From Enoplolaimus lenunculus (lineage: Eukaryota), in contig JASANG010001329.1 in NCBI GenBank assembly GCA_030248215.1, positions 558,001-613,166 of the forward strand: 55,166 nt of DNA, written 5' to 3'. Of the stretch, positions 3,001 to 53,746 are shown piece by piece (position 1 is the stretch's first letter; every line of letters begins with the position of its first letter). The notes beneath the pieces were generated by a model, which was not told the DNA's origin, did not search any database, and was given only the letters and a program-made list of their open reading frames with translations. Both the position numbers and the translations under genes were made by a program.

Positions 3001-3850
3001 AATCTAATCGCAACTTGTTAATCGAAATAAAGTAATAGTGATTGCAGTTTTAACGCAATAGCATTTTTTTAAACTGACAGCAATTCTGAATTTCGTAGGT
3101 CATCTCGCCCCAAAGATTTCTATCATAAACAATCTATTCCAACTCAAAATTTCCCTCATGGATAATGTCTCTCCATCAAAATTTTGCACATTGAATTTAT
3201 ACGGTAATCCTCCCAAAAAATATCTGCCACTGACAATCTGCCTTCCTGAGGAGTTCGGTCTTTAGTTCGGTCACAAAATGCTACAAAACATAATTTAATC
3301 CCAACAAAACATTGATGGAAAAATTATGTTACCATCAGATATCAACCAAAAGCTTATTAAATCCAATGAGTTTTTGCTAAAATCGCGTGAATATCTCGCG
3401 TGACAGGAACAAAATATAGAGATGAATAATTTAAAATAGACGCAAAAAATATCTTGAATTTCATGCAAAAATTGCACGAAACTATTATGAAAACAAGCGA
3501 TGAGTTAAAGAGGTTTCATGAATAAATTTAACAAAAAATCGGAATCGCACTAAAATATGAAATAGCAAACGAACGTATTATATAATCAATAACTACTCTT
3601 AATTGTAAACCAGGAACTGTGAGAAAAAGCAACAGTTAGTTTCCCTAAGACAATATAAGTATATCTGCATTTTTCCTAGTTCTCGGATTATGCCATACAT
3701 TTAGCTAAATTAGAGAATTTTCAACTAAAACAGACTTTCGTGCTTTATATAAGCTGATTCATTCGTTTTTACTTTGGCCCATGTGTAATATAGGAACACG
3801 CCCGCTAAGAGACGAGTGACGGATGGGTTTTGAGACTACTAACTTCAGAA

Positions 3851-3917
3851 TTCGGCTTAGGCTCAGGATTACGCTTAGGATTAGGGTTAGGCTTAGATTT
3901 AGGTCAAGGGTTTAGGC
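3851..3917. repeat. Degenerate (TTAGGC/TTAGGG)-like hexamer tract
   Basis: ggcttaggctcaggattacgcttaggattagggttaggcttag. Similar tracts occur near 11570-11630, 13200-13226, 30030-30085 (reverse) and 34578-34600 (reverse). Confidence 0.75.
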
Positions 3918-5131: not shown

Positions 5132-5342
5132 CCCCTTCTCACATATCGCACCGGTTTAACAATTGCAACACGTATACATAGTACTAAATCACTACAAGAC
5201 GTGAGAACCCGCTCGGGCTTGAGCATCAAACTCCTATAGCTGAGTGGTGATGGTATACGCCTCCCACTCTAGTCACTGGAGTTCAAATCCTAGCATAAAA
5301 GTGGGTCTCAGGGGAAATAGAAAATATTCATGTGAGAAAGAG
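5132..5342 (+). mobile_element. Same TTAA/tRNA-like family, internally deleted copy
   Basis: ccccttctcacat...atgtgagaaagag-ttaa; contains tagctgagtgg and gagttcaaatcc. Confidence 0.8.
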
Positions 5343-8300
5343 TTAAGCGAAAAATTTTCAGTTTAGTATCTTTAAGCGAAAATTTTCAGTTTACTATCTA
5401 TATGCACGTTGATCTCATATCTACAACGAACAACGACTACTGGCTTTAAAATTGTGACACTCGCCAGTCGCACTAAATTAAATAGCATTATTTTGTTTAA
5501 AAGCATTCAACCGCAAATACGTGTCAGAGCCCATCTCAGCACCGCAAAGTTGCTCGACTAGCGAATTTTAAAGCAACAGTTGAGTTCGATCACGAAAAAC
5601 GTTCACTTAATACAAAATAGTTTTAAAACCAAAATGAAAACCTAAACATTTAAATTTTTCTCCAGTATTTTCACTATTAACCAGCTGTTGTTAGTAAACT
5701 TTACGCAACAATACTGTTAGTTTAAGGTGAGTTGTGTTTGATGGACAAAATTCGCAAACCCCATACGTCTCTGTATACTCGAATGCAGGAGCAGACAACG
5801 GTGGGGTCCCCGAAAAATTCCGAGGTGGTGCCCCCAAGCGGTGATTAAAATGTTTTTCAAATTTTTTGTTTAATATCTCGTTACGGTGTGGGCCTTGCTT
5901 TTGGGTGCCCCCTCGGAATTCGGAGGTATGGGGGTGTCTGTTCCAACCATGCTATAACCAAACCAAAATCCACAACAAAGATAAAAGTAAACCATGCCAG
6001 CGAAGCTAACGGCAAACCAGACACAAATTTTACTTCAAAGTGACAATGCAAAATTATGCAAATGTTTGATTCATATGAAGCCAGAACGGATATATAATTG
6101 TGAGTATATATTGAGAATAACAATGAACGTAAATTGTGGTGACGAAACGTTGGTGTATCGCTAACAGAGTAAAGATGATACAACAGAACCTCACAGACTT
6201 TTAGTTGCACCTCTTGAGCAGTTTCAAACATGGAACGATTTTTGGGTTGAACGAAAGTTTAAATTTTGCATTTAATACGACGAGCTCAAAACTTCGTTTA
6301 AAAGTGTTTTACTTCAACAGAAAGAAACGATAGTATTTTATTTTGACGACAAACCTTTGTCGAACCTGTTTGGCACTAAAATAGAAAAATTAATAGTTTT
6401 TGTGGATCGCTGTGACATGCTGCGATTGTGTATTTAATAAAACATGTGAAAACGTTTAAGCTTCTGTTAGCTTTACCCAATATATAGTAGAACCAGGATT
6501 TTTTAGCGGGCGGATACTTTTTGTGTCTCGAAATTTTACAATTTTCAAGTGTGTTTTTAGCGAATGTTTCCACGTGTTAAAGTGGACCAACTGCATGGGA
6601 ACGCACAAAAGTTTACAGTATGTGTTGCAACTTAGCGATATTTTTAACCTATTTGGCTTGAAAACCCATTGTAAGCCTCTGATGATCAATTTTCGTCGCA
6701 AACTTTTCACCACGACATGGTCGGTGTGGGGTGTATCCCCGCCTTGCCCTCTTGGATCCGCCACTGCTAATACCAATTCTTGGTTTAAAAGTGGTAGCAA
6801 TTGTAAAAAATTACGTTGCCCCAAAGTATGCGTGATATACATTGAAAGCTTTGGTTTCATTCATTTCCTTTCATACCAGGGTCGCACACAAGTCAACTTG
6901 TGTTTACCCCCCTCCACTTCGCAACCTATCGTTGTTAATCGATAGTATTAAAACAGCCACCACCGGCGCTTACTCCAATTAAAAATTTACAACTGGACAA
7001 TGAAGAATGTATATTAATATGAACGCATGCATATAGTGTCGTCAAAACTTTGTCTAATAGACTGCAGTTTGCATTGCATGCAACAAATCTTAAAACAATA
7101 TTTAAACGTACAATAATTTGCACTAAAGTATGAGATGTGCGCGCAGTGCATGCATATTTAAGTTTTAATACGCCATGCAACATCACTGAGAAATATACAC
7201 TGACATTGCAATATATATAAATAATACACCAGGCTGTTCAATAGGATTTGCTGCGATTTGGATTAGAAAAATCTGATACTTAAAACGAATCAGAAAAATT
7301 GGAAGAGAGAATTTCGACCGAAATACAACTTTCAAGCATGAAAGTATTAAAATTTGGTTTTGTAGCATTGGGAAACAACCGTGATTTTGTTCATAAAACA
7401 TTGAACTGGTTTTGCAGGATAGATTGTTCATAAGAGGGGACGTTTAATAATTTATAAAAATAAACCAGACAAAGGGTTTGGTATATCATTCAAATCATAG
7501 TAAGCAGAAGACTTCAAATTTGTTGCGCTATGAGGATTTGTAATTTGATTTATGCTTGAAATTATTCCGAGGTTGAGCTCAAAACTAAAGCGGTATAAAG
7601 ACATGCCCGTAGCTGCCTCACCTTGCTAGGGGAAGCTAAAAATCTTTCACGAGGGGCATGCAACGGTTTTCAATGAGTTACAAGCAAGGTTGAAAATTTT
7701 TTAGAGGACCAAAATTTTTCCAGGAGGCTTGCTTCCGCCTCACAGTTCGATCACTGTTTGCAAGGAATGCAAGCAGCGAAAAGACAGATGTATCAGTGAG
7801 AGCAACTAATTTTTTGTTTTTCTCTATACGTTTTGTCACTGTTACGCAAGTAATTTACTGAACTTACTAAAAATAGCAAAAATTAACCCTTCTCAAAACC
7901 GAAAACCCCCAACCAGATATAAAAAACACCAACGTGTAACTGGCTCGTATAGTGGCTACGCATATTTGAGAATATATATTGGCCAATTGGCGAAAGACGG
8001 AAAAGTTGCGAAAATTGTAGCATGTTTGTTGCGTATATAAACCATTTAAAAGTACAAATACTCGAGCTCAACGTTTTCCAGCACGAACGATTTACACAGC
8101 CCATTGATATTGTTCAAATAAATTGTTTTCCTAGAGTATTTTCATTGTTAGGAATGCAGTCGCTTAGACGTTTATCAAACAATTCATGTGCACACCCCAT
8201 ATACGTCGTTAAGTTGTTTAACATTACTGATGCGTAAAAAGTGCAACTTCTATCACTTATCACATGATACAGTATCATGAATTTCAATCAAAAACACTGT

Positions 8301-9337
8301 TCTTGTGTCCAGCGTCATGAATCTTGAATGAATACGAGCATTGTTTATCGTTTGAAAATTTGTAAAAATGATAGAGAATGCGAGCGAAATTTTTTAAATT
8401 CAATTGAAATAAATTAATTTTTGAACGTTTAGACCAAGGGTCCAACACGATTGTTTAGTGTTTAAAAAGTTTAAGTATTTGCCATAACTTACTTTTGTAG
8501 TGGAGCACATAAAGAGATTAAGTTTTCAGCTGGATAAGGTATCGTTTAACAAGGCATTCAACATCCTCAATCCCCTTTTTAAGCCATATGTTGAGTTTGC
8601 AATTGCAAATGTTTGAGACTAGCAGATTTTAACTTGTAAAATTTTAGCACAATATCATTTTAAAGTCCTGCTAAAATTGCATGCTTTATTCGCCGAAGTT
8701 GAGGTAAAACAGTTTCTGCGGCTTGCTGTCAAGGTATGCAATCAAGAAGTTTGGCATGGATATTGTAGGCTGATAGGCCTTGTCAGACCTTTGTTTACGA
8801 AACAGCTGGTCAGTTTACTTTTCTTCTATGGTTCAACCGTTCCAGTTCCTTACTAATAAATTTCATTGTGATGTACACCAAGGTCGTGCGATTATGTATT
8901 ATTGATATTAAAATACACTGGAAAATTTAACAAATTTTTCTTGACCAGAGAAATAATGGTCAGTAAAGGTGAGTCGTGCGTAAAGAAATAATCTTCCGTG
9001 AATAACGGGGGTCAGGTAAAGAGAACTTTACCTACTTACTCCATTGCAACGCCAGCATCTTGTTAATGATCTAAGAAAAAAGACAAACAATGCCAAATAC
9101 TGCTATTAAAAAGCAAGAAACAATAACCTTAACGTCTTCGCAACTTGGATCTGAACAAAAGCCTGACATCGCCCCTGGTCGATCGTGGAATGAAAATGTA
9201 TACTAGAAGAATTGCAAGAACAGTCTTTGCTCCATCAGTTTAATTTTCGGGATTTTTTATTATGTATTCTTTTCACTAACCGGAATTTTCTTTTCATGTG
9301 ACACCTAAAACATCGTGTTTTAGTAAACTATGAGGCG

Positions 9338-10047
9338 TGGCAGCCTAGGTTGGAAGTGGGACATCAGACCTTTTTACTAAGCAGCTGGAAAAGCGGGTTT
9401 CCGGACATGGGATCGAACTCTCAGCCTACGGATCCGTAAGCGAACACTCTGCTGTATTCACCCGAATATGAGGGGGTAATAAAAGGGGGTCCCCATTTTG
9501 AGTCCGAATCAATAGGAGTCCGTATCCCTAATAATAGTCCGTAAATGGATAGAGTCCCTAAACCCTAATTAGAGTCCATAAATGTCAATTAACCCTTAAA
9601 TTGTAGCGCATAAATGACTCCAGGACCAAATAATTTGAGTTCGAAACTTTAAAGGGTACTTAAATTTAGAAAGCATATTCCTAAGTATAACCTTGCATGA
9701 TCGCTCAAGCTATTGACACAAGCCAAATAAACGTTTAATTCAACGGATAATTACAGTACCGGATATATATCAGTAACAAAGGGCGGCGGAGCGTGGGTTA
9801 AAAATATATAACAGTCCGTAACCGAATAACAAGGGGATACCCTCTGGAGAGTGGAGAGGCCAAATAAAAATCCGTCCCCCCTGTTATTCGGGACACTACA
9901 GTGCCACTGCGCCACGCAGCCCATCTCTCCAACGGCATTTTTCGTTGACTATATGTGTCGACCGTATGCTACCATCTAGTATACCTACAGTGCACTGCAC
10001 TATATTGCATGTGCAAATAATGGACAAGAATGTCTCATATGCTTACA
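9338..10047 (-). mobile_element. Solo LTR of the same TRIM-like family, interrupted by a MITE (9452-9901)
   Basis: TG...CA termini (TGGCAG...CTTACA) flanked by the 5-bp direct repeat AGGCG (9333-9337, 10048-10052). About 258 bp after removing the insert. Homologous to 45408-45660. Confidence 0.78.
9452..9901. mobile_element. MITE with CTGTA...TACAG termini and 2-bp TSD, copy 1
   Basis: Imperfect TIRs ctgtattcacccgaata / tattcgggacactacag, with TG on both flanks. Full-length homology to 25289-26152. Confidence 0.85.
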
Positions 10048-12514
10048 AGGCGAATACAATATAATGTCCCGCGTAGTACAAGCAATATGGATGAACAGTT
10101 TTTAAATGGTAAAAAAATTCCTAAACATATTGAGAGCAACCGCGTATCTGACAGTATTTTATTTTGCCACTTTCGTAGCGAAAACGTGGAAATAATTGAA
10201 AATTTTTTAAAGTCGCTTAGATTAGCGATTTTTGCAACACCTTACTACTTTACGAGATCAATAATTTTATTCACATAAATTTTGTGAGAAAATCTTGTTT
10301 CATCAAGTTTAAAACCTAACTGGTTGTATTGAGGTTGTCTAAAATTTTATAGATTAACTAAACCATATATAAACGCTATTTTAAGTGCAACAGTACAAGA
10401 AATATTCAGATTTGTAATTTTTTGGTTCACGAATTCTTGTGTTAAAGTAAACTCATTTTACATCATTACAACAATAACAACAGCTTTCTATAGGTTTTAT
10501 CGTAAAAAATATCTAACCATGAGAAAAATTCTTATGCCTATGGTGGAATAACAAAAATTCACCGCGAATGCATAATCTCATATTACGACACGTAGATAAT
10601 TTTTTTCGTTTCGTTAATAACAGGATTGAACATAATGCATGATGTGTATTGACATCAGGGATGTAGTCCGAATTTTATTTCGGCAGGGTGTAACCTAATG
10701 TAAAATTAATTTTTTGACTTACGATCCAACGGGTTATTCGCAACGCTTGTTGATTGTTGGGTTTATTTTATTTATCGCAGTTTGAAACCGCCGGCGATCT
10801 CTCGATCACCTTTTTATATACGTCCCAAAATTGACACTGAACACAAACCGTGTGGGAAAGTTCGCAAAGAAAGTCACGTTGAAGTAACTGTTTTTACCAA
10901 ATATATCCCTTTTGAATAACGTGTATCGTTGCCCGTATATTATCACATTATTGACCAATACTGTTTCAAAATTTAAATTTTGACAAAACTTTTTTGTGAA
11001 ATTTCATGAACAACAAATATTTTTTACGCACACATAAGTTTCGAAGTCGTACTGCAATGGGAAATTGCAGCGAAACGCTAGTAGGTTTTAAACAGGTGAC
11101 ATTGAAATACGACACATTTTTGGCAAATACTCGACCCATCATACTTGACTACAATTGGAGCTGAAGGTCTAAAATACAGGTGTCAGATGCGGGTACCGGC
11201 AATATATGTCGGTGTCGTGAAAATACGCTAAACTTGTACACTGAAAGTAGAGCTCAGATTTGAAGTATAGAAATAATCGAATGATTTCAATAATTTGTTT
11301 ATGAAATTGTTTTAGATAAATCTCATTAATAGAAAGTTGAAAGTCGCGTACAAAATAATTACGAACAAACTCGATTAACGAATCGTAAGAGCCGCTGCCA
11401 AAAATTACTCCGGGAACGAACAAAGTCGATTTCCTAACGGAGTCTGAGTCAGGGTTTTGGCAACACCCTAGTAGTATTACACTCAACGGTCCATGTAAAG
11501 ATCAGGGGTGAACGTTTTTCTGAGGGACTGTAATAGAGTAAGCTTGAGCTTTAGACAAATGTTTGCTTGCTTAGGCTTAGGCTTAGGTATGAACTCATTC
11601 TAACGCTTACGCTCAGGCTGAGGTTAGGAGTATGCTGGTACTACTGTTATACGGCGATGTTCTATAGATTGGGCCACTCTGACTTTACTAAGAAAATTTT
11701 ATGAAAACTAACGCACTATCACGGTTGAATTTTTCAATACATAGTACCTAAACTGACCACATCAAATAACGAATAAACTAGCCTTTCACAAAAATCAGCT
11801 ACATATTCAAGACGAAAACGTAATATTTCTGTCAGCGAAAGTTTTGTTGATGGCATTCTGGTTAATAGTAGACAATAAAGCGTCAGTTTCGCAGTTGAAA
11901 AAAAAACACACAGAACACAAAACATGTCTGCCCTTGAAGAATTAAAGAGTCAATTTTAATTTTCACTACACAACTCCGAAACGAATTAGTATCAACTTTA
12001 AGAAATATCCATTGGCGTACGACTATTTAAGTGTGAGAGTTTATGAAGGTTGAAGATATTTCAAATTGAACATTGTGTTTTGCTAAATAATGCGTAAAAA
12101 TAAAAATTTCACCCATCAACAGCCCAAAAATGTACTTTATCCGTTGATCCGAAGGGGCCACACTGGCCATGTTCCCACAAAAGGGATCGCAGAACCAAAA
12201 GTATTCAAGGTTTAGTACTAAAATTGCATTTGGTTTCTTGCTCGTCTCGCTTGATAGCGATTTTCACTTTATAAATGTCGCGCAGCCTTCCCGTGAAGAA
12301 TTTCTGAATTTGAAACTGCGTTTTTCGTAACAAGACGATCAAATGAACAAAATAGACAGTTTTAAATACATTCCTCGAGTAGTTGCAATTATTGTGCAAA
12401 ATAATTAAAGTTGTCCTATAATGTGTGCGCATAAAGCTTTCCTTGCGCATCAAAGTTTCGATCTGAAAACAGAAATTTTGCTACCGTCTGTTTCGTAACT
12501 CGAAGATAATTATT

Positions 12515-13318: not shown

Positions 13319-13673
13319 AATGGTACAACCGGAGGTCTGTCCGGCTCCGGCAGAAAATCACCCTCCGGCTCCGGTAGAATTTTTGAAGGAGGTTCCGGCA
13401 ATTTCGGTAGTAAAATTTTCCATAATTTTGCAAAATTTATCTGTTTAGCGCGTATCGTTTTACTTTTGTCACAGTTTTCAGGAAAGAGTTTCCGAAATTT
13501 CGCCATGAAATTAGCGTAAAACCAAACATCTTAACAATATATTGCACATATTGGCTAAAATTAACTAGTTAACCATCATTTTTACTGCCTAATTTCGCCT
13601 CACCTCCGTTTCTGGCAAATTTTGTTGACCTCCGGCTCCGGCTCCGGCATTTTTCACCTCCATTTGCACCCTG
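13319..13673. mobile_element. hAT-like MITE, second copy of the 20401 family, inserted in an older ggatatcc-rich repeat
   Basis: Perfect 8-bp TSD ccagatat (13311-13318, 13674-13681); full-length similarity to 20401-20759. Confidence 0.88.
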
Positions 13674-14517: not shown

Positions 14518-14772
14518 TCTTTATCACATGAATATTTTCTATTTAGCCTGAGACCTACTTTTATGCAGGATTCGAACTCCAGTGACTGGAGTGGGAGGCG
14601 TTCACCATCACCTATAGGAGCTTGACGCTCGAGCCCGAGGGGGCTCTCACGTCTTGTGGTGATTTAGTACTATGTATACGTGTTGCAATTGTTAAACACT
14701 GTGCGATATATACAATTTAACGTATAGTACACTGCGCTGAGTTGCTCATAGTCAACTCTATGCGAGAAGGGG
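14518..14772 (-). mobile_element. Same TTAA/tRNA-like family, tandem neighbour
   Basis: Near-identical to 14804-15065; left terminus degenerate. Confidence 0.8.
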
Positions 14773-14803
14773 TTAGATAGTTAACTGAAAAATTTTCGCT
14801 TAA

Positions 14804-15065
14804 CCCTTTATCACATGAACATTTTCTATTTCATCTGATACCTACTTTTATGCTAGGATTTGAACACCAGTGATTGGAGTGGGAGGCGTTCACCATCACC
14901 ACTCAGCTATAGGAGCTTGACGCTCGAGCCAGAGGGGCTCTCACGTCTTGTGGTGATTTAGTACTATGTATACGTGTTACAATTGTTAAACACGGTGCGA
15001 TATATACTATTTAACGTATATACACTGCACTGAGTTGCTCATAGTCAACTCTATCGGAGAAGGGG
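14804..15065 (-). mobile_element. TTAA-flanked piggyBac-like MITE carrying an internal tRNA-like module
   Basis: TTAA on both flanks (14800-14803, 15066-15069); imperfect TIR ccctttatcacat / atcggagaagggg. On the minus strand it has an A box TAGCTGAGTGG, GCCTCCCAC and a B box GTTCAAATCC. Confidence 0.8.
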
Positions 15066-15614
15066 TTAAATTTCAAGTTTTTAAGTCTTGAAAATATCAA
15101 AATATACACGTTCACGTCTGGTGACCTATGGATGGACTACTGCGGAACCAAATATGTATTATTTTCAACAGTTCACAAAACTATAATTCTTTCATGTATT
15201 ACTGTAAAACAGCGGCGCGCTGAGTTGAATTGCGTCATTTTTGTGTTGGATGACTGGGGTACGATTTTTCAACTGCTTTTGATTAAAAATAAAAATTCAA
15301 TCCCATCAAACGAATGAAGCTGCTTATTGTCTAAACGGAATAACTTTTAGCTGAGTGTGAGTAGTAGCGCCGCGGCACTGCTATTACGGCTCGGTTTTTA
15401 AGTTACACTGCAGACATTTTATTGCTCACATGCAAAATATATACTGAATAAGTTAGTGCTGCAGTAATTATTTAGACCGTTCATCACTGGTTCCATGATA
15501 TTTTTAGATGGAAAGCAACGAACACGACAACAACAACTTAATTCTTTATCAGCAAATGGATTATTGGAAATGGGGCACATGTGAATAAATGACTAAACAA
15601 AAGCACAATTATAA

Positions 15615-16453: not shown

Positions 16454-19400
16454 TCACAGAGGCGATTCATACGCAGTCTTATGAATGAGGCTAATGTTAG
16501 CACAGTTTCGTTCAAACAGCAAACGGCCTGGAGTCAGATTATTGCCAAACATGCAACTACGAAAGTTTGTAACCTCTTCATCATTGTTTACATCGTTTGC
16601 TGTAATATTTTCAAACCGGGTCGACTCTAAATTATACAGGTCCCCACTCAACTGGTCATATACCTCATCCCCAGGTCCGTCTTCGCTAGATCTTCTGCGA
16701 CCGCTTCCACGTCGTAGCGATACATTTTCATAAGTGTGATTAGTATCACCAACGCTCGACATATCGTTAGCATAAATATGGTGCTGTCGATCACAATTAT
16801 TATACGCGTCATCGTAATTCGCACATATTCCTGTACTGCTACATTTCTTTTCGCTCGCAAGAAGTTGCTCTTGGAGCCTTCGTTTCAGTGGTGACGATTT
16901 TTCTGACTGAACTCGATGACCATCAACAAAATAAGGGCTAGACATTTTCTGCGTTGGACTAGTCGGAACACTGTTACTCCCACTTGTAGGACGTACAGCG
17001 CGGCCATTATGATCCGATCCGAGTTCTCTTCTTGGCATATTAATATACGTTGCATCTTCGTTGACCAAATACCCTCTTCTAGTATCGTGACCATCTTGAG
17101 AAACGTTAGATCCACTAATATTGTTCGCTACAACATCATCATTTTTAACGGGTTCCGATGATTGCCCTCCAAGCCCGGAACTGCCAGAGTACGAGTTTTG
17201 CGTTTCGCTACCGGTATCGTGATCTGGCTTGCGACAAATTTCGTTTTGTGTTTTGCTACTACGACTGCTATTCGATGACGTCGTTGGATCACTAGCGCTT
17301 CCACTGGCCGGCCATAGCTGAACTGGAGAATTGCTTATCGCCGAATCACGGGATAGTGTTGCAGTTGGCGATAGGTGCCCAGGTTTAGCTGTTGCCCCTC
17401 GCCGTTGTACCGGGGACGGTTGAGTGTACAAATGCGGATGTGGAATAATATACGAAACTTCGTTTTTATCTTTTGAATCGTTGGAAATTGAATTTTTGGC
17501 GAAATTCATACTTTTGACAACATTTGTTTGAGGTGCGTTACCGTGAGCACAAACGGGTGAACTCCGAACTGGAAGATTTGATAGTGGTTCAACAGGTTGC
17601 GTCGAACAATGCAGCCTGGAACCCCTGGAAGCGGCAGTGATTGTTGAAGCTACACCACAGCAGGTTCTGATGGAATTAACCTCTCCTGTAGACGAAGCAA
17701 TACTGCAAGCGACATTATATCCAGTGCACGTCATTTTCGATGGTGATATCACAGGATTTCGAGCTACAGGCTGAGTCCTATCATTACCAATTGAGTCAAA
17801 GTTCGAAAACACCACTTGAGGGGCTTGAGTTAAAGGTAAATCGGCAAACTGTAGATTAGACAACGAACCAGGTTTAGCACAATCATTGTCATCCTGGATT
17901 TGAATCATATCGTCAGCGCCAATGACTTGTTCAGGACTAGATAGCACCACTGTATTCATATCAACTGGTCCCACTATGCCTTTAGTGCCCCACACCACGT
18001 TACCAGGTCGTGGGACAGAGTAACGGTACTCAAACTGTTTACCAACGAGGGTATCACACAATCTGTAATGATTCCTGGGCAGCCGTAAGTCCCCACTAAA
18101 ACCGCGACAAGTTTCCAATGACCGAAAATGTGCCGCCGTTTCATACGTGAGTGCACAATCCCCACAATTCCACAACCGGTGTTTTATGCATATGAACGAT
18201 CGGAAGGATTGAGGTTGATTTTTACTACACATGTCCAACGTTTCGTCAGCGCTCATACCACATCCACCTGTTTTTCGGACGTCGCTGTTGAAATTAGTAT
18301 TTCGAGCCTGTCTACCGCTAGCTTCCGCAGCCAAATTGCTTCCGATATGACTATCCTGACCAGATGCCTGTTTAGTTTTGACAATATCAGCATTAGGACG
18401 ACAGACCACAACTTTGCCACCGCCATCAGCAGTCAAGTAATTAATCGAAGATTTATAACCTCGACGTCGCTGTATCGAAGCCCGAGCTGTCACCGGAATA
18501 TCCGGCTCAAAATATTTACGACCAACCCCAGCCAAGCATTCAGAACTGCTGCTCAAATACTTTGTCATTGCACGACGACTAGAATTATTTCCGACGCATT
18601 TTTTGACACCATGCCCTGGAGTACGCCGTAATTCACGTTGCTGAGACCGAGCATTGCCTTTATAACGTTCGTTTGAACTGCTGTTTCCTACGCTGGCTTT
18701 AACGCAAGCAGCAGTAACTGACGTTAACGGAGCGTTAAAATTTGCACCACTAAAATCATGCCTTGCTCGTAGTTCGTTTTCGTCAAGATAGCCGGATGCA
18801 TATGCAGGATATGCAAGCATGCCATGGACACTTAACGGATTACTTGGATCCAAGAATCCATCGCGGGGACCGAAATAACCAGGTAACGAAAACAATGGGT
18901 TATTGTGCGACACATCTGGTCTTGAATCCCGTGACGAACACCTCGCCGTAGAGTTCGTCTCTGAAGCCAATGCACAACCAGCACGATTATTGCCGTCACC
19001 GAAGTTGACCAAATTCAGTCTGCGAGTGCTGCGTGCTTCGCAATACGTGCGGCCTGCAGCAGCTGTGGAGACTACTGGCTTGCATTGAGATGATAGTAGT
19101 TGTTGATACGCTGCCGATCTTGGTAGACTACTTGCACACCAAAGTCCTGTACTAGCCTCACCTATCAGATCATGACCATGCAGCAACCATTCTGTTGGTG
19201 GAAATTGTGCCGAAAACGTTGCTCGTTGAACGGACGACTGCAGTTGTGTCGCTGCCGGATTTAAACCATCCTTATCACCAGCTTTGCACGTGTCTTCTTT
19301 TTTCATTACAGTATTTGCCACCGTACGATTTTGACACTTTCCATGGTCGTTGTTGGTATTTTCGCGCTTGCATCCAGACGGATTATCGCAGTTACGACTA

Positions 19401-19782
19401 GTTTTCACCTTTTCGCGTTTTAATTTATTCTCATCGTTAGCGCTGACTGCATCTTTTGCCTTCAACACCACTCGGGCATTTTTTCGTGCACGATCCAAGC
19501 TCGCTGCTTCAGTAGTTTTTTGCTTCATAGCCACGATGCCACGTGTCTGCTCATTGGGACAGATTTCGTCGGCAAAATTTCCAGACGGTTTTTTGAGCGA
19601 ATTTTGATTTTCAAATGATTTACTGCTGCTCAGCGCTGTTGTAGCTGCTGATTTGGTGGCAGCATCAGCGTCGCCGACCAGCTCGTCATGAATCGATTTC
19701 GATTTCGGTGGTTTACGTTTGAATATACGATGAAACAGCGGCTGGGTCACCGTTTTTTTCTTGACGGCACAACTTTCCGTTT
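16454..19782 (-). CDS. STOX: Storkhead-box protein, large terminal exon 4
   Basis: Acceptor tatttcag|AA completes G+AA (Glu) in the frame of the 1136-aa ORF. Contains FSAQFPPTEW, matching the conserved STOX FSAQFPPEEW motif. TGA stop at 16456-16454. The four exons sum to 4104 nt, or 1367 aa plus stop. Confidence 0.9.
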
Positions 19783-19789
19783 CTGAAAT

Positions 19790-19863
19790 AACAACAACAA
19801 CAACAGTAACAACAACAACAACAACAACAACAACCAACAACAACAACAACAAACTCAACAACA
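19790..19863. repeat. (AAC)n microsatellite abutting the exon 4 acceptor
   Basis: Imperfect AAC run, read directly. On the sense strand it reads (GTT)n in the position of the polypyrimidine tract. Confidence 0.95.
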
Positions 19864-20400
19864 TGTTCCTTTCAAAATGACTATCAGAAATAACAATACA
19901 TAAATAGTACTACTACACTGAGTTGGATCCGGTAAAGAATTTAATAACACAACCCGCACTTTGTTTGTGAAAAACTGTTACCAGCGCGTGTACTTGCGGT
20001 TAAACGCTCAAGCGGCATCAAGCATAGGTATTAACAGGATATAATAATTAACGTAATCGTAATAAGAATGTATGACAGAGAGTATAACACTCCACCATTT
20101 TACGCTCAATCAGGTCGCATCACGCGGTTTTAAAGTTGCCGTATCCATCACTGATTGTTAAGGTGGGCATTAACTATGTACGCACCCAAGGATTTACTAA
20201 TAAAGCATCATCAAAAACTATAATCAGCCACGCGATTTAACCGTATACCTTTTTAAGACTATGACATACCCCCTTCTCAATCATTGTGGGAGTAAGAATA
20301 TATACTGCCTTGCCTGTGTGATGCTACACTGCACTAATATGTGATTCGCGTGAAACGGTGAACTGTATAAACGTATTGATCTGTTAATTCTAAAAAGCAT

Positions 20401-20759
20401 CAGGGTACAACCGGAGGTCTGCCTCCGGCTCCGGCAGAAAATCGGCCTCCGGATCCGGTAGAATTTTTGCCGGAGGTTCCAGCAACTTCGGTAGTAAAAT
20501 TTTGCATATTAATTTTGCAAAATTTATCTGTTTAGCGTGTTTCGTTTTACTTTTGGCAAATTTTTTCGGGGAAAAATTTCCGAATTTCGCAGAAAATTAG
20601 CGTAAAGCCAAATAACTTAACTACATATTGCAGATATTGGCTAAAATTAACTAATTAACCATCATTTATATTACCTGATTTCGCCTCACCTCCGGCTTCG
20701 GCAACTTTCGTTGACCTCCGGTTCCGGCTCCGGTAGTTTTCACCTCCGGTTGCACCCTG
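20401..20759. mobile_element. hAT-like MITE in STOX intron 3
   Basis: TIR cagggt(a/g)caaccggaggt; TSD aaaagcat/ataagcat (7 of 8). Homologous to 13319-13673. Confidence 0.9.
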
Positions 20760-24129: not shown

Positions 24130-24297
24130 GAGTCGTGCTACAGCCACTTTGCCGTTCGGGCATAACTGTTCGACACACTTGAGGCATGGTTACCGCACGC
24201 CTCAGCGTTGCCATAAACCGTTTGATACACAGTTAATGCACTCTGCAGCGTGCCGTAACTGTGCTTCATGTGTGCCGAACGGCTATACCGCACGGTT
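24130..24297. mobile_element. Probable decayed Tourist-like MITE at the start of STOX intron 1
   Basis: GC-rich imperfect palindrome (gccgttcgggcata / tgtgccgaacggc) flanked by TAA and TTA. Confidence 0.45.
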
Positions 24298-24301
24298 TTA
24301 C

Positions 24302-24454
24302 CTTTCTTGGAATCGCCATATTCGCATACTGCTTTTTCATAACCGCAATAATATAGTCTATAGTTGCAATTTGTCCATGACTATTCAACGCTGCGATTAT
24401 AGAGCAAAGGGTTTCCGGCAACGAAAGGAAAACAGTACGCTGTGTGTCTTGCAT
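24302..24454 (-). CDS. STOX: Storkhead-box protein, first identified coding exon (N-terminal half of the winged-helix domain)
   Basis: Translation MQDTQRTVFLSLPETLCSIIAALNSHGQIATIDYIIAVMKKQYANMAIPRK resembles, from memory, the STOX1/2 motif M-x6-F-x-x-L-x-E-x-LC-x-x-I-x-x-[ML]N. It ends at AAG|GTAAAA (phase 0 donor at 24301-24300). The start (ATG at 24454) is uncertain, since upstream exons are possible. Confidence 0.85.
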
Positions 24455-25288
24455 ATGGTGGGTGGATTTACAGAAAACAATATATATATTTGCGGGCAAT
24501 AATATGTTTTATTAATTTAAATTATACATAACCTAAAAATACACAAATTGCAACGCGTAAAATAGACCAGTTATTGGCTATGTACTGTTCACAACACAGT
24601 TTTCAAAATTGTCCGATTTTGGCCTATCGTAGGCTTATGTTATGTTTTTGGATTGATTTTGTTTTACTTCCTACTCCGGCTAAATTTGTGCACGTCAGTT
24701 TGAGGTTTTTTTCACCTCCGGTTGTACTAAGATATCTAACATTACGTCTAACATAAGCTAAGCTACTGAAACGCAGATATCAATTACCTTTATTGCCGAC
24801 CACGAGACGAACACGTTGACGTACCTATTTAAAACGAGTAAAATATGATCCTAAGAATGCTATAATTATACAAAAACTTACAAACTTCAATATGAGACAA
24901 AGCATAAAACAACTAATGACAGGTAGTTCATGTATATTTTTGTTATCGACAAATAAAAACTGCACCCAGCTACAAACGCCTTAATCTGCAACCTGTAGGT
25001 ATATGTTACAAGTGTACCAGCGCGTGTCGTCGTTGCTTCAACTTCACGTCGCGTTTGGTCACGCATCCACAAACATTCTATATACATCAAATTTGACCTC
25101 AACATAAACATATATTTGTAAGCCAAATGAACGCTGGCCAACCATAGTTCAAATATGCTGCATGATACTCGTTCTAAAGCATTAAAACAGCCATTAAAAG
25201 CAATGAAATTCCCATTTAGAAAGCCAAATCACCACAATTTGTTGCCGCATAAAACACACAATTCAATTGCTTAATAAGTCAAATAATA

Positions 25289-26152
25289 CTGTAGTGATCC
25301 TAATAAGAGGGGGTAATAAAAAAGGAGGGGGTCCCCATTTTGAGTCGATATCAATAGGAGTCCGTATCCCTGATAAGAGTCCGTAAACGGATAGAGCCCC
25401 TACACCCCAATTCGAGTCCATAAATGTCAATTATCCCTAATTGTAGCGCATACATGACTCCAAGACCAAATAATTTGAGTCCGAAACTTTAAGTACTTAA
25501 GTTTGAAAGTACATTCCTAAGCACAACCTTTTTATAACCTTGCATTATTGCTCAAGCTTTTGATGCAAGACAAATAATCGCTTAATTCTACGGATAGTTG
25601 CAATACCGGATATACAACAGTAAGGAACAGGGTGCGACCGGATATCAAAAACTGACGGAGCCGGATAATCGAATATCCTGCCGGAGCCGGATAGTAAATT
25701 CGATTGTTTATTTAATCTCATATTCCTTTATAAGTTTATAGTTTGTATTCTGGTTTATTAAATCATATTACTGTTCGAATTACTGGTTGACCGCGCTAAT
25801 TATGGGTTTTTTTCGTAAATTAATAGCCTATCACTCAAAAATTACCACAAACACATGCATCTTTTAAATGGTTTACATAACACAATTATGACTCAATAAA
25901 GATATAAATGTAAGTCAATCTAAGTCAATTAGTTTATTTTTTCAAATTTTTAAACAAATATCCGGCAAGAAAAAATACCGGAGCCGGATTCCGATTTTTT
26001 GACGGAGCCGGATATCCGGTCGCACCCTGGTAAGGAAGGGTGGCGGAGGGCTGGTTGAAAATAAATAACAGTCCGTAACCGAATACCAAGGGAAGTACCC
26101 TCTGGAGAGGCCAAATAAATATCAGCCCCCCTTTCTATGCGGGTCACTACAG
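25289..26152. mobile_element. Same MITE family, copy 2 (TA TSD), containing a nested hAT-like MITE
   Basis: ta-ctgtagtga...tcactacag-ta. Aligns to 9452-9901 apart from the insert. Confidence 0.88.
25628..26029. mobile_element. hAT-like MITE (nested)
   Basis: Perfect 19-bp TIR cagggtgcgaccggatatc, perfect 8-bp TSD gtaaggaa (25620-25627, 26030-26037), and subterminal gagccgga repeats. Confidence 0.92.
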
Positions 26153-26184
26153 TACGATCTTGCTGTTGTTTGCAAACTCGTTAC

Positions 26185-45087: not shown

Positions 45088-45924
45088 TGTCAGTCTGGGT
45101 TGCAACCGGTACTTCAGACCTTTTTACCCAGCAGCTGGAAAAACGGGCCTCTAGAGTGGAAATCGAATTCTAAGCCTACGGATCCTTAAGCGCGTCATCG
45201 ACTATATATGTCGACCGTATCCTGCTATCTAGCACACATACAGTGCACTGCACTATATTGCATGTGCACATAACAAAAAAGCATTTATCACATACTTACA
45301 TGCCCCGAATTTGAGCAAGGCCGTGCCATGACCGCCCATCTTATTTTCGACTGAACACGTTGTTCAAAGCGCGGTAATTTACCATTGCGCTTACATTGTA
45401 GTCCCCATGTCAGTTTAGGATGAAACCGGGACTTCAGACCTTTTACTCAGCAGCTAAAAAACCGGGTAATGGGTGGTTTCGAACTAGCGACCTTCTGCTT
45501 GTGAGGCAGACGCTGTTACCACTGCGCCACGCAGCCCGTTTATTCAACTACTTTAATCATCGACTATTTGTCGGGACATATGCAGCCAACTAGTATACAA
45601 CACAAGGTGCATTGCATATACTGCAAATGCACTAGGACAAGCATATTTCAAATGCTTACATACCCCAATTTTCAACAAGGTCGTCCCTTGACTATCCACC
45701 CTACCTTCGACTGGATACCTTGTTGAAAGCGCAGTAATTTTCCATTGCGCTCACGGCGTGGCCCCCATGTCAGTCTGGGTAGGAACAAGGATTTCAGACC
45801 ATTTTACTAAAGGCTGCAAAAGAGGGCCTCCAGTGCGTCTACTACTACGTCACACAGCCCGCTCTACAACTGCACTTTTTGTCGACTACATGTGTCCAGC
45901 TAGCATACATACAGTGCACTGCAT
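45088..45924 (-). mobile_element. Tandem TRIM-like miniature LTR retroelement (LTR-internal-LTR-internal-LTR) with a tRNA-like module in the LTRs
   Basis: Three related repeats start TGTCAG on the plus strand (45088, 45408, 45768) and two end CTTACA (45300, 45660); the third is truncated. They are separated by two homologous 107-bp spacers. On the minus strand each spacer begins TGGGG immediately after the LTR-terminal CA (PBS-like) and ends in a G-rich tract before the next TG. Confidence 0.72.
45463..45537 (-). pseudogene. tRNA-like (Val-CAC-like) Pol III module inside an LTR; not a canonical tRNA
   Basis: A box TGGCGCAGTGG, anticodon arm TCTGC-CTCACAA-GCAGA, B box GTTCGAAACC, then T6 at 45461-45456. 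Acceptor and T stems are mispaired. Confidence 0.7.
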
Positions 45925-46949
45925 TGAGCTAAACAAGGTTGCAAAGCGTAAACCAAAAATTTTAACGTACACAAATATGTAGTCATCTCCCACGCCTACA
46001 TCTCGACTCAACCATCACCAACAGGGCCTAGGCCCCACGTAGTTTTGGGTTTGCTCTCCCCGCACTCTCCAGCAGCCTAAGAGAGGCGCAGATATGAATG
46101 TCGCTATATGTGCTGTGCGTGGTAAGTGTATATAAAGCAAAATATTGATGTGCATATACACATATACCGGTGTAACAAGTTGCAATGAATACAAGGTGTA
46201 GTGGTAGCATAAGTGACTCGAGTGTCGAGTGCAAAAGAGCCGAGGTTTTATTCCCGACGTGGTCATCAACTTTAAATAGCGAATTTATGCATGACATCGG
46301 CGTTTAACTTTTATATTCCCAGCAATAGATCATCCCTAGCTACGTAAATACCCTGTTCTAATAAAGATTAAACCGTACTACCACTCCCTGTATTTTCAGA
46401 AGGTTTTGTAACTATTCCCAAATGAACGGAGTACACATACTTAAATGTATCATTGAAACTATGTGTTTCTTTACATGAGTAAACTATGATTTCAAATACA
46501 GCTGAAAAATCGGATCTGGAGAAATAATGTTGAATTTGCAAATTTTACCAAAAAATTAATTTCATTAACAAAACTTCCGGACTCTAGTACAAAAATTAGC
46601 ACTGCAGCCAGACCCAGACGTCGATTTTTGCCGCAGCATTAGCTGGAAACAGAGGTGCTGTTGTACCTTGGCAAACTTTCTGTTCAAAATCGGGTGTATT
46701 TACCGCAAGTTTTAGAAACCACGCCGGAACCAGAGTTGGTGGTCATCAAACTTGGCGGAGTGGGAGCAGCATCCATCAACGTTAAAATGCAAACGCATAT
46801 GTAAAAAATGTTCCACCTACCCCATTGCGAACATCACCAAAATACAAATGCAGCCTGGAGTCGTGGTACAGTTTCACAGGGGTAGAACCGGGTTGATAAC
46901 CTATTCTAACATGAATATTTGCAATTTCACTTGAAATGTAACTTCAAGG

Positions 46950-47090
46950 TGAAATTCGAACCGCAGTCTCACGGGTGGGAGGCGTTTACGATGACAACTG
47001 AGCTATAGGAGCTTGACGCTCGAGCCCGAAGGGGCTCTCACGTCTTGTGGAGATTTTATACTGCGCATATAGACTATAACTGTTAAACAC
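46950..47090 (-). repeat. Partial or diverged copy of the tRNA-like module of the TTAA family
   Basis: Minus strand gctcctatagctcagttg...gcctcccacccgtgagactgcggttcgaa, plus the shared upstream gagcccc-ttc-gggctc hairpin. Confidence 0.7.
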
Positions 47091-47475
47091 TACTCACAGT
47101 GTGGGCATTGATTGTACATTATTGTATTTAGTGGCTCAAACGTCTTTACGTTGTTACGCACGTAAACAAATATAAACACACATCATTCAACGCAAAAAAA
47201 CATGATTCCGTTCTGAGAGCGACAATGGACAATATAACAGTTCCTGATAATGACGTCAGGACGAGTATAGCTATGCATGCCTTACAGCATATTCATTTTC
47301 TAAAGGTTCAGACATTGACATATGGACATGTCAAGTTGGGTATAAAGAGAGTGGGAAGAGACAACACGGGTGCCCAAAACGGAGGGACATTTTTTACATG
47401 TGAGAAACGTGTATAAAATTTCAAAGTGGGCATGGTAAAACTGTCATATTCTACCATCATGCGTTCCAATTTGAA

Positions 47476-47743
47476 CCCTTTCTCACATGAATATTTTCTA
47501 TTTCCCCTGAGACCTACTTTTTATATGCTAGGATTCGAACTCAAGTGACTGGAGTGGGAGGCGCATACCATCACCAATGAGCTATAGGAGCTTGACGCTC
47601 GAGTCCGAGGGGGCTGTCACGTTTTGTGGTGATGTAGTATTATGTATACGTGTTGCAATTGTTAAACACGGTGCGATATATACTATTTAACGTATATACA
47701 CTGCGCTGAGAGTTTCCTACAGGCAACTCAATGTGAGAAGGGG
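47476..47743 (-). mobile_element. Same TTAA/tRNA-like family, full-length copy
   Basis: 13-bp TIR ccctttctcacat / atgtgagaagggg; flanks TGAA and TTAA. Confidence 0.82.
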
Positions 47744-50700
47744 TTAACCTAACGGACCTTCCAACACGAGAGTCTGGATTGATAATGGAAAATTTTACGT
47801 ACATCAAATTAAACTCAATTCAGAGCAGTGATAACCGGCATCCAATAGGTTTTATCGAAAAACTTAAAATATTTTAGGACTCTCCCATGCTGTTGCGTAT
47901 TCTAAAAGGAAGATTTAGGTGGAACTATGTGAAGTTAAAAGTATATTTTCTCACAATTCCAAACTCCAATTAAGAGTCAATCACACAAAGATGGCTACAT
48001 AAAAGCCAACATTAAGAATAGTACTAGTCCGTCCAAATTCAAACTGCGAAAAACTGCGAACAAACTGATTACACCGTGGCTAAGCTTGTTTATATCTTTT
48101 AACCATAATACGAGCAATGGTGGCCACGCTCGCGAAGGATTCAAAAAGTTTTATTCCTTTCTTCGCGATTCATAAGTCAGTTTATTTTTGATTTCAAGTT
48201 GATTTGTATTGGAATGGTTATCACGATAGCTCCAAGTGAGCCTACGGTGCACCGGCGATCAGGAGTTTAGTAAACGGAGCGCATAGCGCGGAGCCTACGG
48301 GCAGTACCTGGGTAACTTTGGGGAACTCTGGTGTATTAAGCGGATTTTGGGGGATATTTGGAGTTGTTTCTGGGGTTTGTCGATTCTAGCTGTGCTAGTT
48401 TTGGTGGTTTTCTGGAGTCTTGGAATTTTGTACGGTTACTTGGGGATTTTACGAAGATTCTGGGTTTGTCACGTTAATGTTGACATTTGGCTTTTGTACA
48501 ACGTGAGCTTGTGAGAGTTGTGGAATAACGGGATAAGGCATCGTAGTAGACGTGCGGAAAGCACCTAACAAAGGAACTTTCGGCACCATCGGTTGAATAA
48601 TTTCAAGGATACGCATATTACTTGTATTGTATCGGCACTAGTGCTTTACTCGTGTAGCTTTACTGCGGTGTTGAGGGGAATAAAAGGGGAAACTGACTGA
48701 ATTATTGAACCAGAGCAAAATAGCGGCATTGAAATACGAACCTAGACGCGAAGTTGTTGGTTTCCATACGTATCCAAAATCACGAACTATTTACAGCATT
48801 ATGTCTCAATCAATACTATACTGTGGATAATACGCCGATCCCAGAAAGATTATAAAGGTAAGCCATTGCGGGGCAAAAGCTTTAAGAACGGAGTGGTGTT
48901 ATAGACTACCTGCAGACCACCATCGTCATTTTATTACAAAAATTTGTAATAATTTTAATTGCAATATTTGACAAAGTTTTATTTAAAATAGTTGATTTTG
49001 CAAGTGTGTTCCAATTATAGACAAATAAATTCCAGTATTGTGGTATGCAACTTGCTCAACAACTTTACGGTTCTTGAAGTTAACTAAGTATTTGAAATTA
49101 ATTATAAAGAACTTTTGTATATTTCGTGAAAGTTTGCACAGAAATTTGTGTAATTTTAAAGTTGGCATGGTAAAACTATCATATTCTACCATCATGTGTT
49201 TTGAATTTAAAGGCATATAAATGAATTAAACTTTCTTAACTTAAATCACGTTGTTTACGCCTGTGGATTTCAACATATTTAACATATGAACTTCTTAAAC
49301 GTTTCTTTGAATATCGTGTTAATTTGCGAAAATGGCGATAGCCATGGCGCAATTGCGGGAGCATTATTTAAAAACCATTTGCATTAACAGGTTTTATCAT
49401 ATTTTCCTTAGTTTAACCTATATGTTTTTGCTGAATTCAATATAACTCCGGCGCTATGTAACCTCGCTTGATTTCAGGCGTCTGTTGGAATTTTTTGCTC
49501 AGATTTAGCGTTTACTTGCCTTCCCTGAGTCTTAGGCGATTGACGGCTCCATTTTCTATATATGTCAGGTAAGCAGAGGCATATTCAGAAGTGTCCCTAA
49601 GCCATCGGGTTGTTCATGTTGTTTCGTTTTGAACACGGACCTTGTTATCCTAACATATGTCGGTGATGATCAATGGTAAATCTTAAAACTTGGGAAACTT
49701 TCAATTGTTATAAAAGGTTTGGTTTCTAGATTCTCGTCATTGTTTTTATTAATTAACGTCATTAGCGTCGTTTGGAGAACAATTTGTATGTAAAACAAAA
49801 AATTTTACCACTATTAAAGATTAAATTTTAGAAAAATTAATGGTTCAAAACTTAAAGTACTACTAGTGATTATGGGTGTGGACGCCCTGCAGAAATTTGC
49901 ATTGGGCTGAAAATTGTAAGTATGGTGATAATTGATGAGTATATTAACGGGTCGTTAGTTAAAATAACCTAAATTTAATATAAAAAATGTTCTTTTTCAG
50001 TTTACTGAGAAAATATTTGAACTATAATTCGATATTGCTTATTCAAGCATTAAAATAGTTTCAAATTTTATTACCTGAGTAGTTTTAGAGGCAAAGTTAA
50101 AAACTTTTTAACTTTAGAGGCATAATGAGCCAATCAATTATGTTTGGAGACTACAACTTTTATGCCATAAAAGGACGTTTCAAACTAAAAACGGCAGTGT
50201 TTAGATAGGTTCGAGGTGTGTTTAGTTTGTTGTGCAGTTTTTAGTCAAGTTTCGAGTGAAAATTTTGTTTCGTTTTCTTCGGAAGTTTTTGTTTATTACA
50301 GACCGCGAGGCACCTTATTATTTTCAACAATATTAGCCGTGGAACTGTACTAAGATGTGAATTCAACAGGGAACGAAGTTTATGCATCAATAGATAGATC
50401 GCGTTGAAACTAGCGCGTGCCAGAGTTAATTGTAAGTAACTAAGAGTAATGCAAGTTTAATAATTTGCAGTTATACATTCTTACTTGTCTTATGAGCGTT
50501 TTACCACATCATTCGTGTTCTGGTAATTTTAATTATACGTTTTCGTTTAACAAATGGATAATTCTAGTAATCTTGATTGCTAGTTGTCCACGCAAGCAAA
50601 ACTTGGTAAGCCTTATAATAAAAATAGCATATTCAGTAACGGTTGTTTGTACAACCCTACTGAGTAGATTTTTTGGATATCTTTGTGCTGAACAGTAAAC

Positions 50701-51710: not shown

Positions 51711-53491
51711 AGGCAGTAATTTTTCCTAAACCCTAATGGGTCATCCACGTTATACTGTCTACGCTACTGCAAAAAAGTGTTCTCGCAAACCAGTCCCTAA
51801 GTTTGTAGTTGTAGTGTTCCAAACTGTCCAAATGTCACCCATATCTTGTATAGACCCTCCGGACAAATCGCACACCCTCTAAGCAGCCTATACTTTGTCA
51901 CATTGTCATCCATATCCATGCTACACTGTCAATGTAATATTAACAGGACAACTGTTTTGTCCAGAGTCTGTCAGAAGGGACACTGTTTAGGCATATCAAG
52001 AGTCTGCCTCAAGGGACTCTGCTTAGGCTTATTAAGAGGCTGTCTGAAAGGGTCTGTGTAGAGTGTATAGAGTCTGCATTAGTGTGCAAGATTAAAGGAG
52101 ATGCACTCGCCCGTTCTCCCCAGGAGGTCAACAGTTTAGAGTTCCAGCGCTATAAACTTCAACCCCAGGCACCGCTCCCCCACCTTTCACGAAAAAATTT
52201 GCTCTCAACAGCGACACCGGGGTTAAACTTTCTTGTATACCAGGGCTATTATATTCTAACCTGCTTTGCGTGTATGGAGCCGGGCGTTCTCTTACAAATT
52301 ATTCTTTACCGGCAAAAAACTTCCTGTCCTCTCTTTTAAAAACTTCTGGTTTCAGTGAATGTTTAAGAAACCAAAATATTTTGAACACTCTAAAATTTAT
52401 AAAAACGCATATCATTTATTTTATTAGTTTAAACTCAAAACTACAGAAAATCAACAATGTAATACAACAAACTAATATGTTGCAAGGAGTACAACGTTGT
52501 TATTTTGTTTTGCTGCATATCTGTAACGGAACAGGAAGCAACAGAGTTTGATTGAAGGGCAAAATAACAAAGACGCCCAAAGGATCAAAAAAGTTAATTT
52601 CGAATTTTAAGGTACTCAAGAGATTTCGTTAGATCTACACCTGTCATCAGCCAGAAGGTACCCTGCCGACCAGAGATCAATTTAACTCTGCCAAAAAAGC
52701 AAAAGTTAAAAACGAAAAGTTGTAAAAAACAATGTTGATAAAACAATGAAGTGCAAGTAATGAGCACTTGCTCTTAAATATTTAAAAATGCAAAGTTTGA
52801 AAGCGTAAATTTAGGAGCAGGTGATGAATATTTGAACTTGAAAACCTTAAACGTAATTTTTAGTAAAACAGATAACAATTATTCCTTTCCTTTTTTAAGG
52901 TTACAAAAACATTTTAATAGCAAAATATTTTTGTTTGTATGGATTTATGAACATTGACGACCTGCTTTAAGGTATGGAAGCAAAGACAGGATGTGAGTTT
53001 GTCAGAGTAGCAAAAATGCTAGTGAAAAGGTGAGGCGGCAAATTTTGTAAATTTTGTTACAAAAAGGTCAAAACTTAAATAGTTTGTTGCGAATGGAAGT
53101 AAAGAGAAATATATGCTGAACAAAGCACGAAAAGTATAAATTTTGCTAAAATCATTGTAAACAAGCTCATTAAGAACCGCATACCGCAAAAATAAAGTTT
53201 TAATTTTATAAACTTGCTAAAATTTTCGTAAGAATTGCCAAGATTTAGTCTGTCGGTTGGCGGAAAATCGAAAAAAAATTATTCAAGCGTAAAGTTTTGC
53301 TTTTACGACACAAAATTGCTTTAAAATTTTAAATATAGCACAAATTCCACAGAGTTTCACGGAAACTCTATCCGGACACGACTATTTTGCAGCGACACTG
53401 TCTAGGACATTGAAATGTTTGAAAGGCAGTGCACTGGACGATATTTTTATAGGATAGACATATTAAGGCCACCTTAGCGAGTAAATTAAAA

Positions 53492-53746
53492 TTTTGGCGG
53501 GAAAGATCATAGTTTGGCGGGAAATTCAAATTTTAGCGAGAAATTCAAATTTGGCGGGAAAATTCAAATTTTGGCGGCAAATTCAAATTTATGCGGGTAA
53601 ATTCAAATTTTGGCGGAAAAACTCAAATTTTGGCGGGAAATTCAAATTTTGGCGGCAAAAACGAAATTATGGCGGGAAATTCAAAATTTGGCGGGAATTA
53701 AAATTCTGTCGTGAAATTCAAATTTTTGCGGGAAATTTTGGCGAAA
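53492..53746. repeat. Minisatellite, about 13 units of 19-20 bp, consensus GGCGGGAAATTCAAATTTT
   Basis: Tandem units read directly. Confidence 0.93.

Follow-up and report, generated by a model that had tools for sequence, protein, structure and literature searches.

Analysis of a 55,166-nt stretch of Enoplolaimus lenunculus DNA (the window) points to a decayed tandem array with shared LTRs of a non-coding, high-copy Helenus-type TRIM, likely a new family, that likely depends for its copying on proteins from an autonomous LTR retrotransposon. We give this reading a probability of roughly 0.7. On the minus strand, the array runs from LTR A, which is truncated at its 5′ end, through spacer 1, LTR B and spacer 2 to LTR C. 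Its parts are as follows.

45768–45924, minus strand: LTR A, 5′-truncated, with a degraded A-box half, the B-box part deleted, a T4 run and a CTGACA end
45661–45767, minus strand: internal region 1 (spacer 1), 107 bp, non-coding
45750–45767, minus strand: PBS-like site 1, TGGGGGCCACGCCGTGAG, directly after the CA of the LTR
45661–45673, minus strand: PPT-like tract 1, weak in this copy
45408–45660, minus strand: LTR B, complete, 253 bp, TGTAAG...CTGACA, common to two units
45301–45407, minus strand: internal region 2 (spacer 2), 107 bp, with a decayed PBS-like start (45390–45407) and a terminal G run
45088–45300, minus strand: LTR C, 213 bp, TGTAAG...CTGACA, of a second core subtype, its A-box part deleted here

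A preliminary description of this locus had proposed three repeats of about 250 bp. LTR B, with its termini, and the truncated LTR A agree with this, whereas LTR C is only 213 bp long. CTGACA ends all three LTRs and TGTAAG starts B and C, as described, but the termini are imperfect inverted repeats that match at 5 of 6 letters. Pairwise LTR identity is 72–76% of aligned columns, both values for LTR A being computed on 45768–45971; the homology of LTR A is confined to 45768–45923/4. The two homologous spacers that had been seen to alternate with the LTRs are both 107 bp long and identical at 80 of 107 columns. Each starts with TGGGG directly after the terminal CA and carries a G4 run two letters before the next TG (ends GGGGTA and GGGGCA), again as first described. 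Repeat-to-repeat BLAST gave an E value of 1.6e-33, and the repeat structure is therefore not due to chance. An element made of LTR, spacer and LTR (253 + 107 + 253) would measure about 613 bp. It has no coding capacity, with no ORF of at least 120 aa overlapping it. The junction of spacer 2 with the middle LTR is matched with 0 differences over 45345–45529 by a contig of sequencing run X1, which may be the assembly's own sample.

A TG at 45971 has the spacing expected for the start of LTR A, but the alignment up to it has many gaps. Read depth falls almost to flank level at 45942–46002, and we rejected 45971 as an intact LTR A end on account of this depth, the gaps and the lack of a target duplication (TSD). 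No 4–6-bp match to the 3′ flank precedes any TG up to 46400; truncation would explain an array without a TSD. Spacer 1 folds better than most of its shuffles (z −2.43; 4 of 200 equally good), whereas spacer 2 does not rise above them (z −0.22); support in one of these two sequences does not establish a conserved spacer structure. Spacer 1 (45661–45767, minus strand) contains a perfect 12-bp inverted repeat and a small hairpin 3′ of the PBS, which could be a packaging signal.

BLAST within the window revealed a fourth LTR copy, absent from the preliminary description and lying 35 kb from the array.

9338–10047, minus strand: solo LTR, about 258 bp without its insert, TGTAAG...CTGCCA, with the core subtype of LTR C
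10048–10052, minus strand: 5′ copy of the 5-bp target duplication CGCCT
9333–9337, minus strand: 3′ copy of the 5-bp target duplication CGCCT
9452–9901, no strand assigned: MITE-like insert that splits the solo LTR just after the A box and is not part of the element

The A box of this copy is at 9914 and its B box at 9418; Rfam found no tRNA match in the split LTR. The CGCCT duplication is perfect, a 5-letter match having a chance of about 0.0013 at the local composition, and the four letters adjoining each end do not match. A 5-bp TSD was thus seen at the one site of one that could be tested. TG...CA boundaries with a TSD of fixed length (4–6 bp) had been named as the check on an LTR element; the ends recur in sequencing contigs, and the 5-bp TSD flanks one solo LTR. 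The MITE-like insert measures 450 bp, has short inverted ends and is bordered by CA on both sides. A second copy at about 25289–26153 is flanked by TA and is itself broken by a further insert of about 400 bp. Another repeat, about 355 bp long and with imperfectly inverted ends, is present as two 86%-identical copies (13322–13673 and 20404–20759) and is probably a MITE.

Contigs of three DNA runs from one study were aligned to the array and its flanks (2715, 3301 and 1804). In run X1, depth was 21–51 in most flank bins and 3,157–139,331 in repeat bins, with one LTR A bin at 104; most repeat bins therefore had hundreds to thousands of times the depth of the flanks. The family is highly repeated, depth of this kind not being convertible to copy number. 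Among the 18 loose-end rows listed, beside 1591 further ones, piles of 28–46 contigs left the element at 45300, 45408 and 45660 and ran on into unlike flanks (agreement 0.35–0.40), which indicates that the TG and CA ends are real boundaries. Several diverged contigs span an LTR, a spacer and the next LTR (for example, X1 records 4–7 among the 24 pieces listed, beside 8583 further ones). Together, the fixed TG and CA ends, the recurring LTR–spacer–LTR junctions and the solo LTR with its TSD bear out the proposal of a TRIM in a shared-LTR tandem array. A search of JGI metagenomes with one conserved LTR motif gave 0 matches, and a single IMG/VR match (L001), in which only the 19 searched letters align, was dismissed as chance.

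The central part of LTR B contains the tRNA-like sequence and the Pol III-type signals.

45464–45536, minus strand: tRNA-like unit with an intact anticodon stem, CAC at the loop position and a broken acceptor stem (Rfam RF00005, 29.4 bits)
45519–45529, minus strand: A box, TGGCGCAGTGG
45476–45484, minus strand: B box core, GTTCGAAAC
45456–45461, minus strand: T6 run, Pol III terminator-like

The A box, anticodon arm, B box and T6 run lie in sense orientation in the middle LTR, where they had first been noticed, and the Rfam score of 29.4 bits is just above the gathering score of 29 (E 0.0014 in 2 kb and 0.04 over the whole window). The unit begins 124 bp inside LTR B, in line with the 120–140 bp of conserved upstream sequence estimated earlier. 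Each box differs by one letter from the usual Helenus TRGCY and GGTTC. By box pattern, this pair is the sole A + B match in the window, and 6 of 200 block shuffles yield one. ARAGORN called no tRNA on the unit, and a functional tRNA was rejected on this result, the broken acceptor stem and a fold not above shuffles. The uninterrupted unit is found in one of the four LTR copies of the window; within the array, only LTR B carries it whole, because LTR C, 40 bp shorter than B, is without the A box and LTR A is without the B box. A T run stands at the matching place in every copy, as T5 in LTR C and T4 in LTR A and the solo LTR. Of the X1 depth at 45503, where the anticodon begins, about 95% carries a different letter (variants not phased).

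A second, unrelated repeat family of about 270–290 bp in the window also has A and B boxes of tRNA type.

5143–5371, 14519–14778, 14806–15071, 46897–47090 and 47474–47747: copies of the second A/B-box repeat family

The copies appear to end in short inverted repeats flanked by TTAA-like letters, which we take to be piggyBac-like, and a 28-bp unit follows two of the copies. This family may represent a SINE, or a MITE with a SINE head.

The LTRs fall into two core subtypes, given that the 3′ half of the solo LTR is closer to LTR C (84 of 110 aligned columns) than to LTR B (75 of 109). The subtypes have a common A-box half, followed by a divergent anticodon-arm and B-box half. Contigs show that the joint of 45192 to 45517 is present in other copies, and so other copies of the LTR C subtype keep the A box. 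Both cores are deep in reads (bins 45149–45209 and 45454–45514), which makes the tRNA-like unit a trait of the family. The A box, the B-box core and the T run are kept while the sequence between them differs, which suggests selection on the promoter boxes.

We compared the PBS-like sites by eye with published tRNA ends of other species (Aplysia tRNA-Pro and bee tRNA-Trp), which may not equal those of the host. The site in spacer 1 agrees with tRNA-Pro in 12 of 18 letters, beginning with an unbroken run of 7, and with tRNA-Trp in 13 of 18, where the initial run is only 3 long (tRNA ends from Fig. S2, PMC10886601). The start of spacer 2 matches tRNA-Pro at 9 of 18, and in a row of loose contig ends from run X3 (7 contigs) the contiguous tRNA-Pro match extended to 8. 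The match is loose and ambiguous between Pro and Trp, and tRNA-Pro is our best guess for the likely primer. We also considered self-priming by the tRNA-like RNA of the LTR and rejected it for both subtypes in the window, since by eye the 3′ ends of neither core complement the PBS. At PBS letters 5–11 there is a likeness to the start of the tRNA-like unit (5 of its first 7 letters in copy 1), which may reflect chance or a shared acceptor stem. The PPTs in the window are weak. Most depth has other letters at 45662, 45666 and 45667, and the last two make the PPT more purine-rich on the minus strand (unphased).

These features allow us to propose how the element would be copied. Transcription by Pol III would begin in one LTR, at its tRNA-like unit; the transcript would sometimes leak through the T4–T6 run, cross the PBS, the spacer and the PPT, and terminate on reaching the T run in the following LTR. 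The resulting RNA of about 400–450 nt would have the tRNA-like unit as its terminal repeat (R). Priming at the PBS would fall to a host tRNA, likely tRNA-Pro, and synthesis and insertion of the DNA to the reverse transcriptase and integrase of a helper; recombination between LTRs would then leave solo LTRs. We infer these enzymatic steps from the structure, and read-through of the T run is an assumption. A T6 run should terminate Pol III efficiently, and the mechanism is weakest at the T run that precedes the PBS.

The LTRs of the array are only 72–76% alike and the cores of B and C differ, so that the array likely arose by recombination between subtypes. Unlike LTRs suggest that subfamilies recombined or that the array is very old, more than they suggest a single recent insertion, and these particular copies are likely dead. 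As a helper, a reverse transcriptase or integrase was sought with Pfam in 256 ORFs, with 0 matches (12 + 95/135 + 89/91 + 60/148). One of the 256 ORFs passed the curated Pfam cut-off, a Storkhead-box winged-helix exon at 24269–24508 (minus strand; PF10264, E 8e-10) with splice-type junctions; DUF4405 stayed below the cut-off. By the known range of its family, the Storkhead exon indicates an animal host, whereas homolog searches gave no usable clue to the lineage, yielding at best four hits with one apparent relative among them and a single weak lead at 0.76. Its next exon likely starts from about 23323 (minus strand), and the array lies about 21 kb upstream of the Storkhead exon on the same strand. 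An open frame of 1151 codons at 16454–19909 (minus strand) has no Pfam match, with no homolog for its last 300 residues, and might be a long final exon belonging to the Storkhead gene. The window also contains a 19-bp minisatellite of 13 copies (53483–53737) and a short, degenerate, telomere-like hexamer array (3850–3896). Their possible likeness to nematode repeats found no support, as hexamer counts did not decide the matter and a literature search listed 0 papers.

The main rival to copying from a Pol III transcript is an ordinary TRIM transcribed by Pol II, in which the tRNA-like part is a passenger, such as an old SINE head. Such an element would still be a Helenus by the sequence definition of Kojima, but would not work like Cassandra. 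The T4–T6 run, which directly follows the tRNA-like unit and precedes the PBS, fits this alternative, as do the A or B boxes deleted or interrupted in three of the four copies of the window. Kojima, too, calls the Pol III function of Helenus not validated (PMC10886601). Against it stands the retention of both boxes and the T run in the two subtypes despite the differing sequence between them, and we consider this alternative unlikely.

The same tRNA-like head, with its A and B boxes, might instead belong to a tRNA-derived SINE with a 5′ extension, or to a SINE inside another repeat, that mimics an LTR, and many contigs do diverge just upstream of the head, at 45538. Among the rows listed, however, the contigs of this pile continue in shared family sequence (agreement 0.65–0.73) rather than in random flank, so that copies do not generally start at the tRNA head. 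Random flanks start instead exactly at TG and CA, the spacer ends are PBS- and PPT-like, and the TSD of the solo copy lies at TG...CA boundaries. With 124 bp of family sequence upstream, an end at CA and no tail, the unit is not an ordinary SINE, as had been argued from the outset, and we regard this origin as highly improbable. Short imperfect inverted termini and the periodic arrangement at 320–360 bp would also suit a non-autonomous DNA transposon or a satellite-like repeat with a period of about 360 bp. Against this, the inverted ends extend to only 5 of 6 letters, as is typical of LTRs, and the unit is found singly as well as linked by a spacer with PBS- and PPT-like ends. TRF reported no tandem array at the locus, and many contigs leave the unit into unlike flanks; a DNA transposon or satellite is hardly credible here.

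The helper of the preferred Helenus-type TRIM may leave its mark in the length of the TSD. Wherever Table S1 of PMC10886601 gives a value for an animal Helenus it is 4 bp, and 5 bp is found in fungal and plant families. The 5-bp TSD, seen here at one site only, is in this respect a difference from animal Helenus, hinting at a different helper. BEL/Pao elements make 5-bp TSDs. In passages of PMC3286476, such TSDs also occur with animal Mag-lineage Gypsy elements. It is possible, and we put it forward tentatively, that this family is a Helenus-type lineage of independent origin, in animals off Kojima's list, with a 5-bp TSD through another helper (Mag-clade Gypsy, BEL/Pao or Copia). Its subfamilies would have swapped the anticodon and B-box half but retained the A-box half together with the T run and LTR frame, as a modular exchange of promoters.

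The family adds a high-copy member to a group described only in 2024 and still without laboratory tests; it is not a class of its own. Should the 5-bp TSD prove general across the genome, it would be an exception to the rule that animal Helenus elements are 4-bp and Gypsy-driven, and would support repeated origins with different helpers. The two promoter-core subtypes, with their T4–T6 variants, would offer a convenient natural experiment on whether the genomic RNA comes from Pol III read-through. Elements of this kind also raise tRNA gene counts falsely.

The closest known system is Helenus (TRIMp3), animal TRIMs with tRNA-derived sequence in the LTR (Kojima 2024, Biology 13:119, PMC10886601). 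The preliminary description knew of no animal example and named an already catalogued family as a refutation. Animal examples have been described, and the kind of element is already catalogued: the design is that of Helenus, published in 2024, and novelty of the element kind is not supported. What may be new is the family itself, the 5-bp TSD (one site) and the two LTR subtypes. Helenus is known from fungi, one lycophyte and six animal phyla, probably with several origins, and has a PBS, a PPT, solo LTRs and, in zebrafish (LTR-11_DR), tandem arrays; element sizes of 311–1263 bp are reported (PMC10886601). An excerpt of PMC13570524 cites it as known. A search for 'TRIMp3' found no other relevant work beyond Kojima 2024 among the papers listed, and a nematode-focused literature search listed two reviews and nothing else. 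In Data S1, seven distinctive 8–11-letter motifs of the family had 0 matches (line breaks can hide matches), and five other motifs matched only in unrelated contexts among the matches listed. Judged by short motifs rather than by alignment, the family looks uncatalogued in Kojima's Data S1, and by sequence it is likely a new family within the Helenus-type TRIMs.

Our element resembles Helenus in being a short non-coding TRIM of an animal host, with TG...CA LTRs that carry a tRNA-like unit with A and B boxes. As in Helenus, this unit is not complementary to its own PBS, and the LTR of 253 bp and internal region of 107 bp fall within the ranges of Table S1. The core of the pearl-oyster Helenus-4_PiIm matches that of LTR B at 27 of 32 letters by eye, the bivalve Helenus-1_TeGr has a tRNA-Pro PBS (PMC10886601), and many of the Helenus LTRs in Data S1 likewise show T runs behind their tRNA-like part. 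Bivalve Helenus families differ in having LTRs shorter than the 253 bp found here, and this family differs from Helenus in its two core subtypes within one LTR frame. Beyond Helenus, Cassandra of plants likewise has a Pol III-type small-RNA unit in the LTR and forms arrays of LTRs and internal domains, as far as the excerpted text goes (PMC7215508, PMC10886601). In the same excerpts it differs in its 5S rRNA sequence, its plant lineage and its demonstrated Pol III transcripts, whereas this element has a tRNA-like unit and a putative Pol III promoter; Rfam on our element found tRNA only, with no 5S match. PbTRIM of ants (PMC3532108), Ta-TRIM of taeniid cestodes (PMC4558846) and bivalve TRIMs (PMC6934838) are, in the excerpts available, similarly small non-autonomous LTR elements of animals; canonical TRIMs are treated by Kojima as lacking a Pol III promoter (PMC10886601). 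Ajax, a nemertean TRIMp3 (PMC10886601), comes close in another way, being an animal TRIM with a Pol III-type LTR promoter and 5-bp TSDs, but its promoter is derived from 5S and its PBS matches tRNA-Leu.
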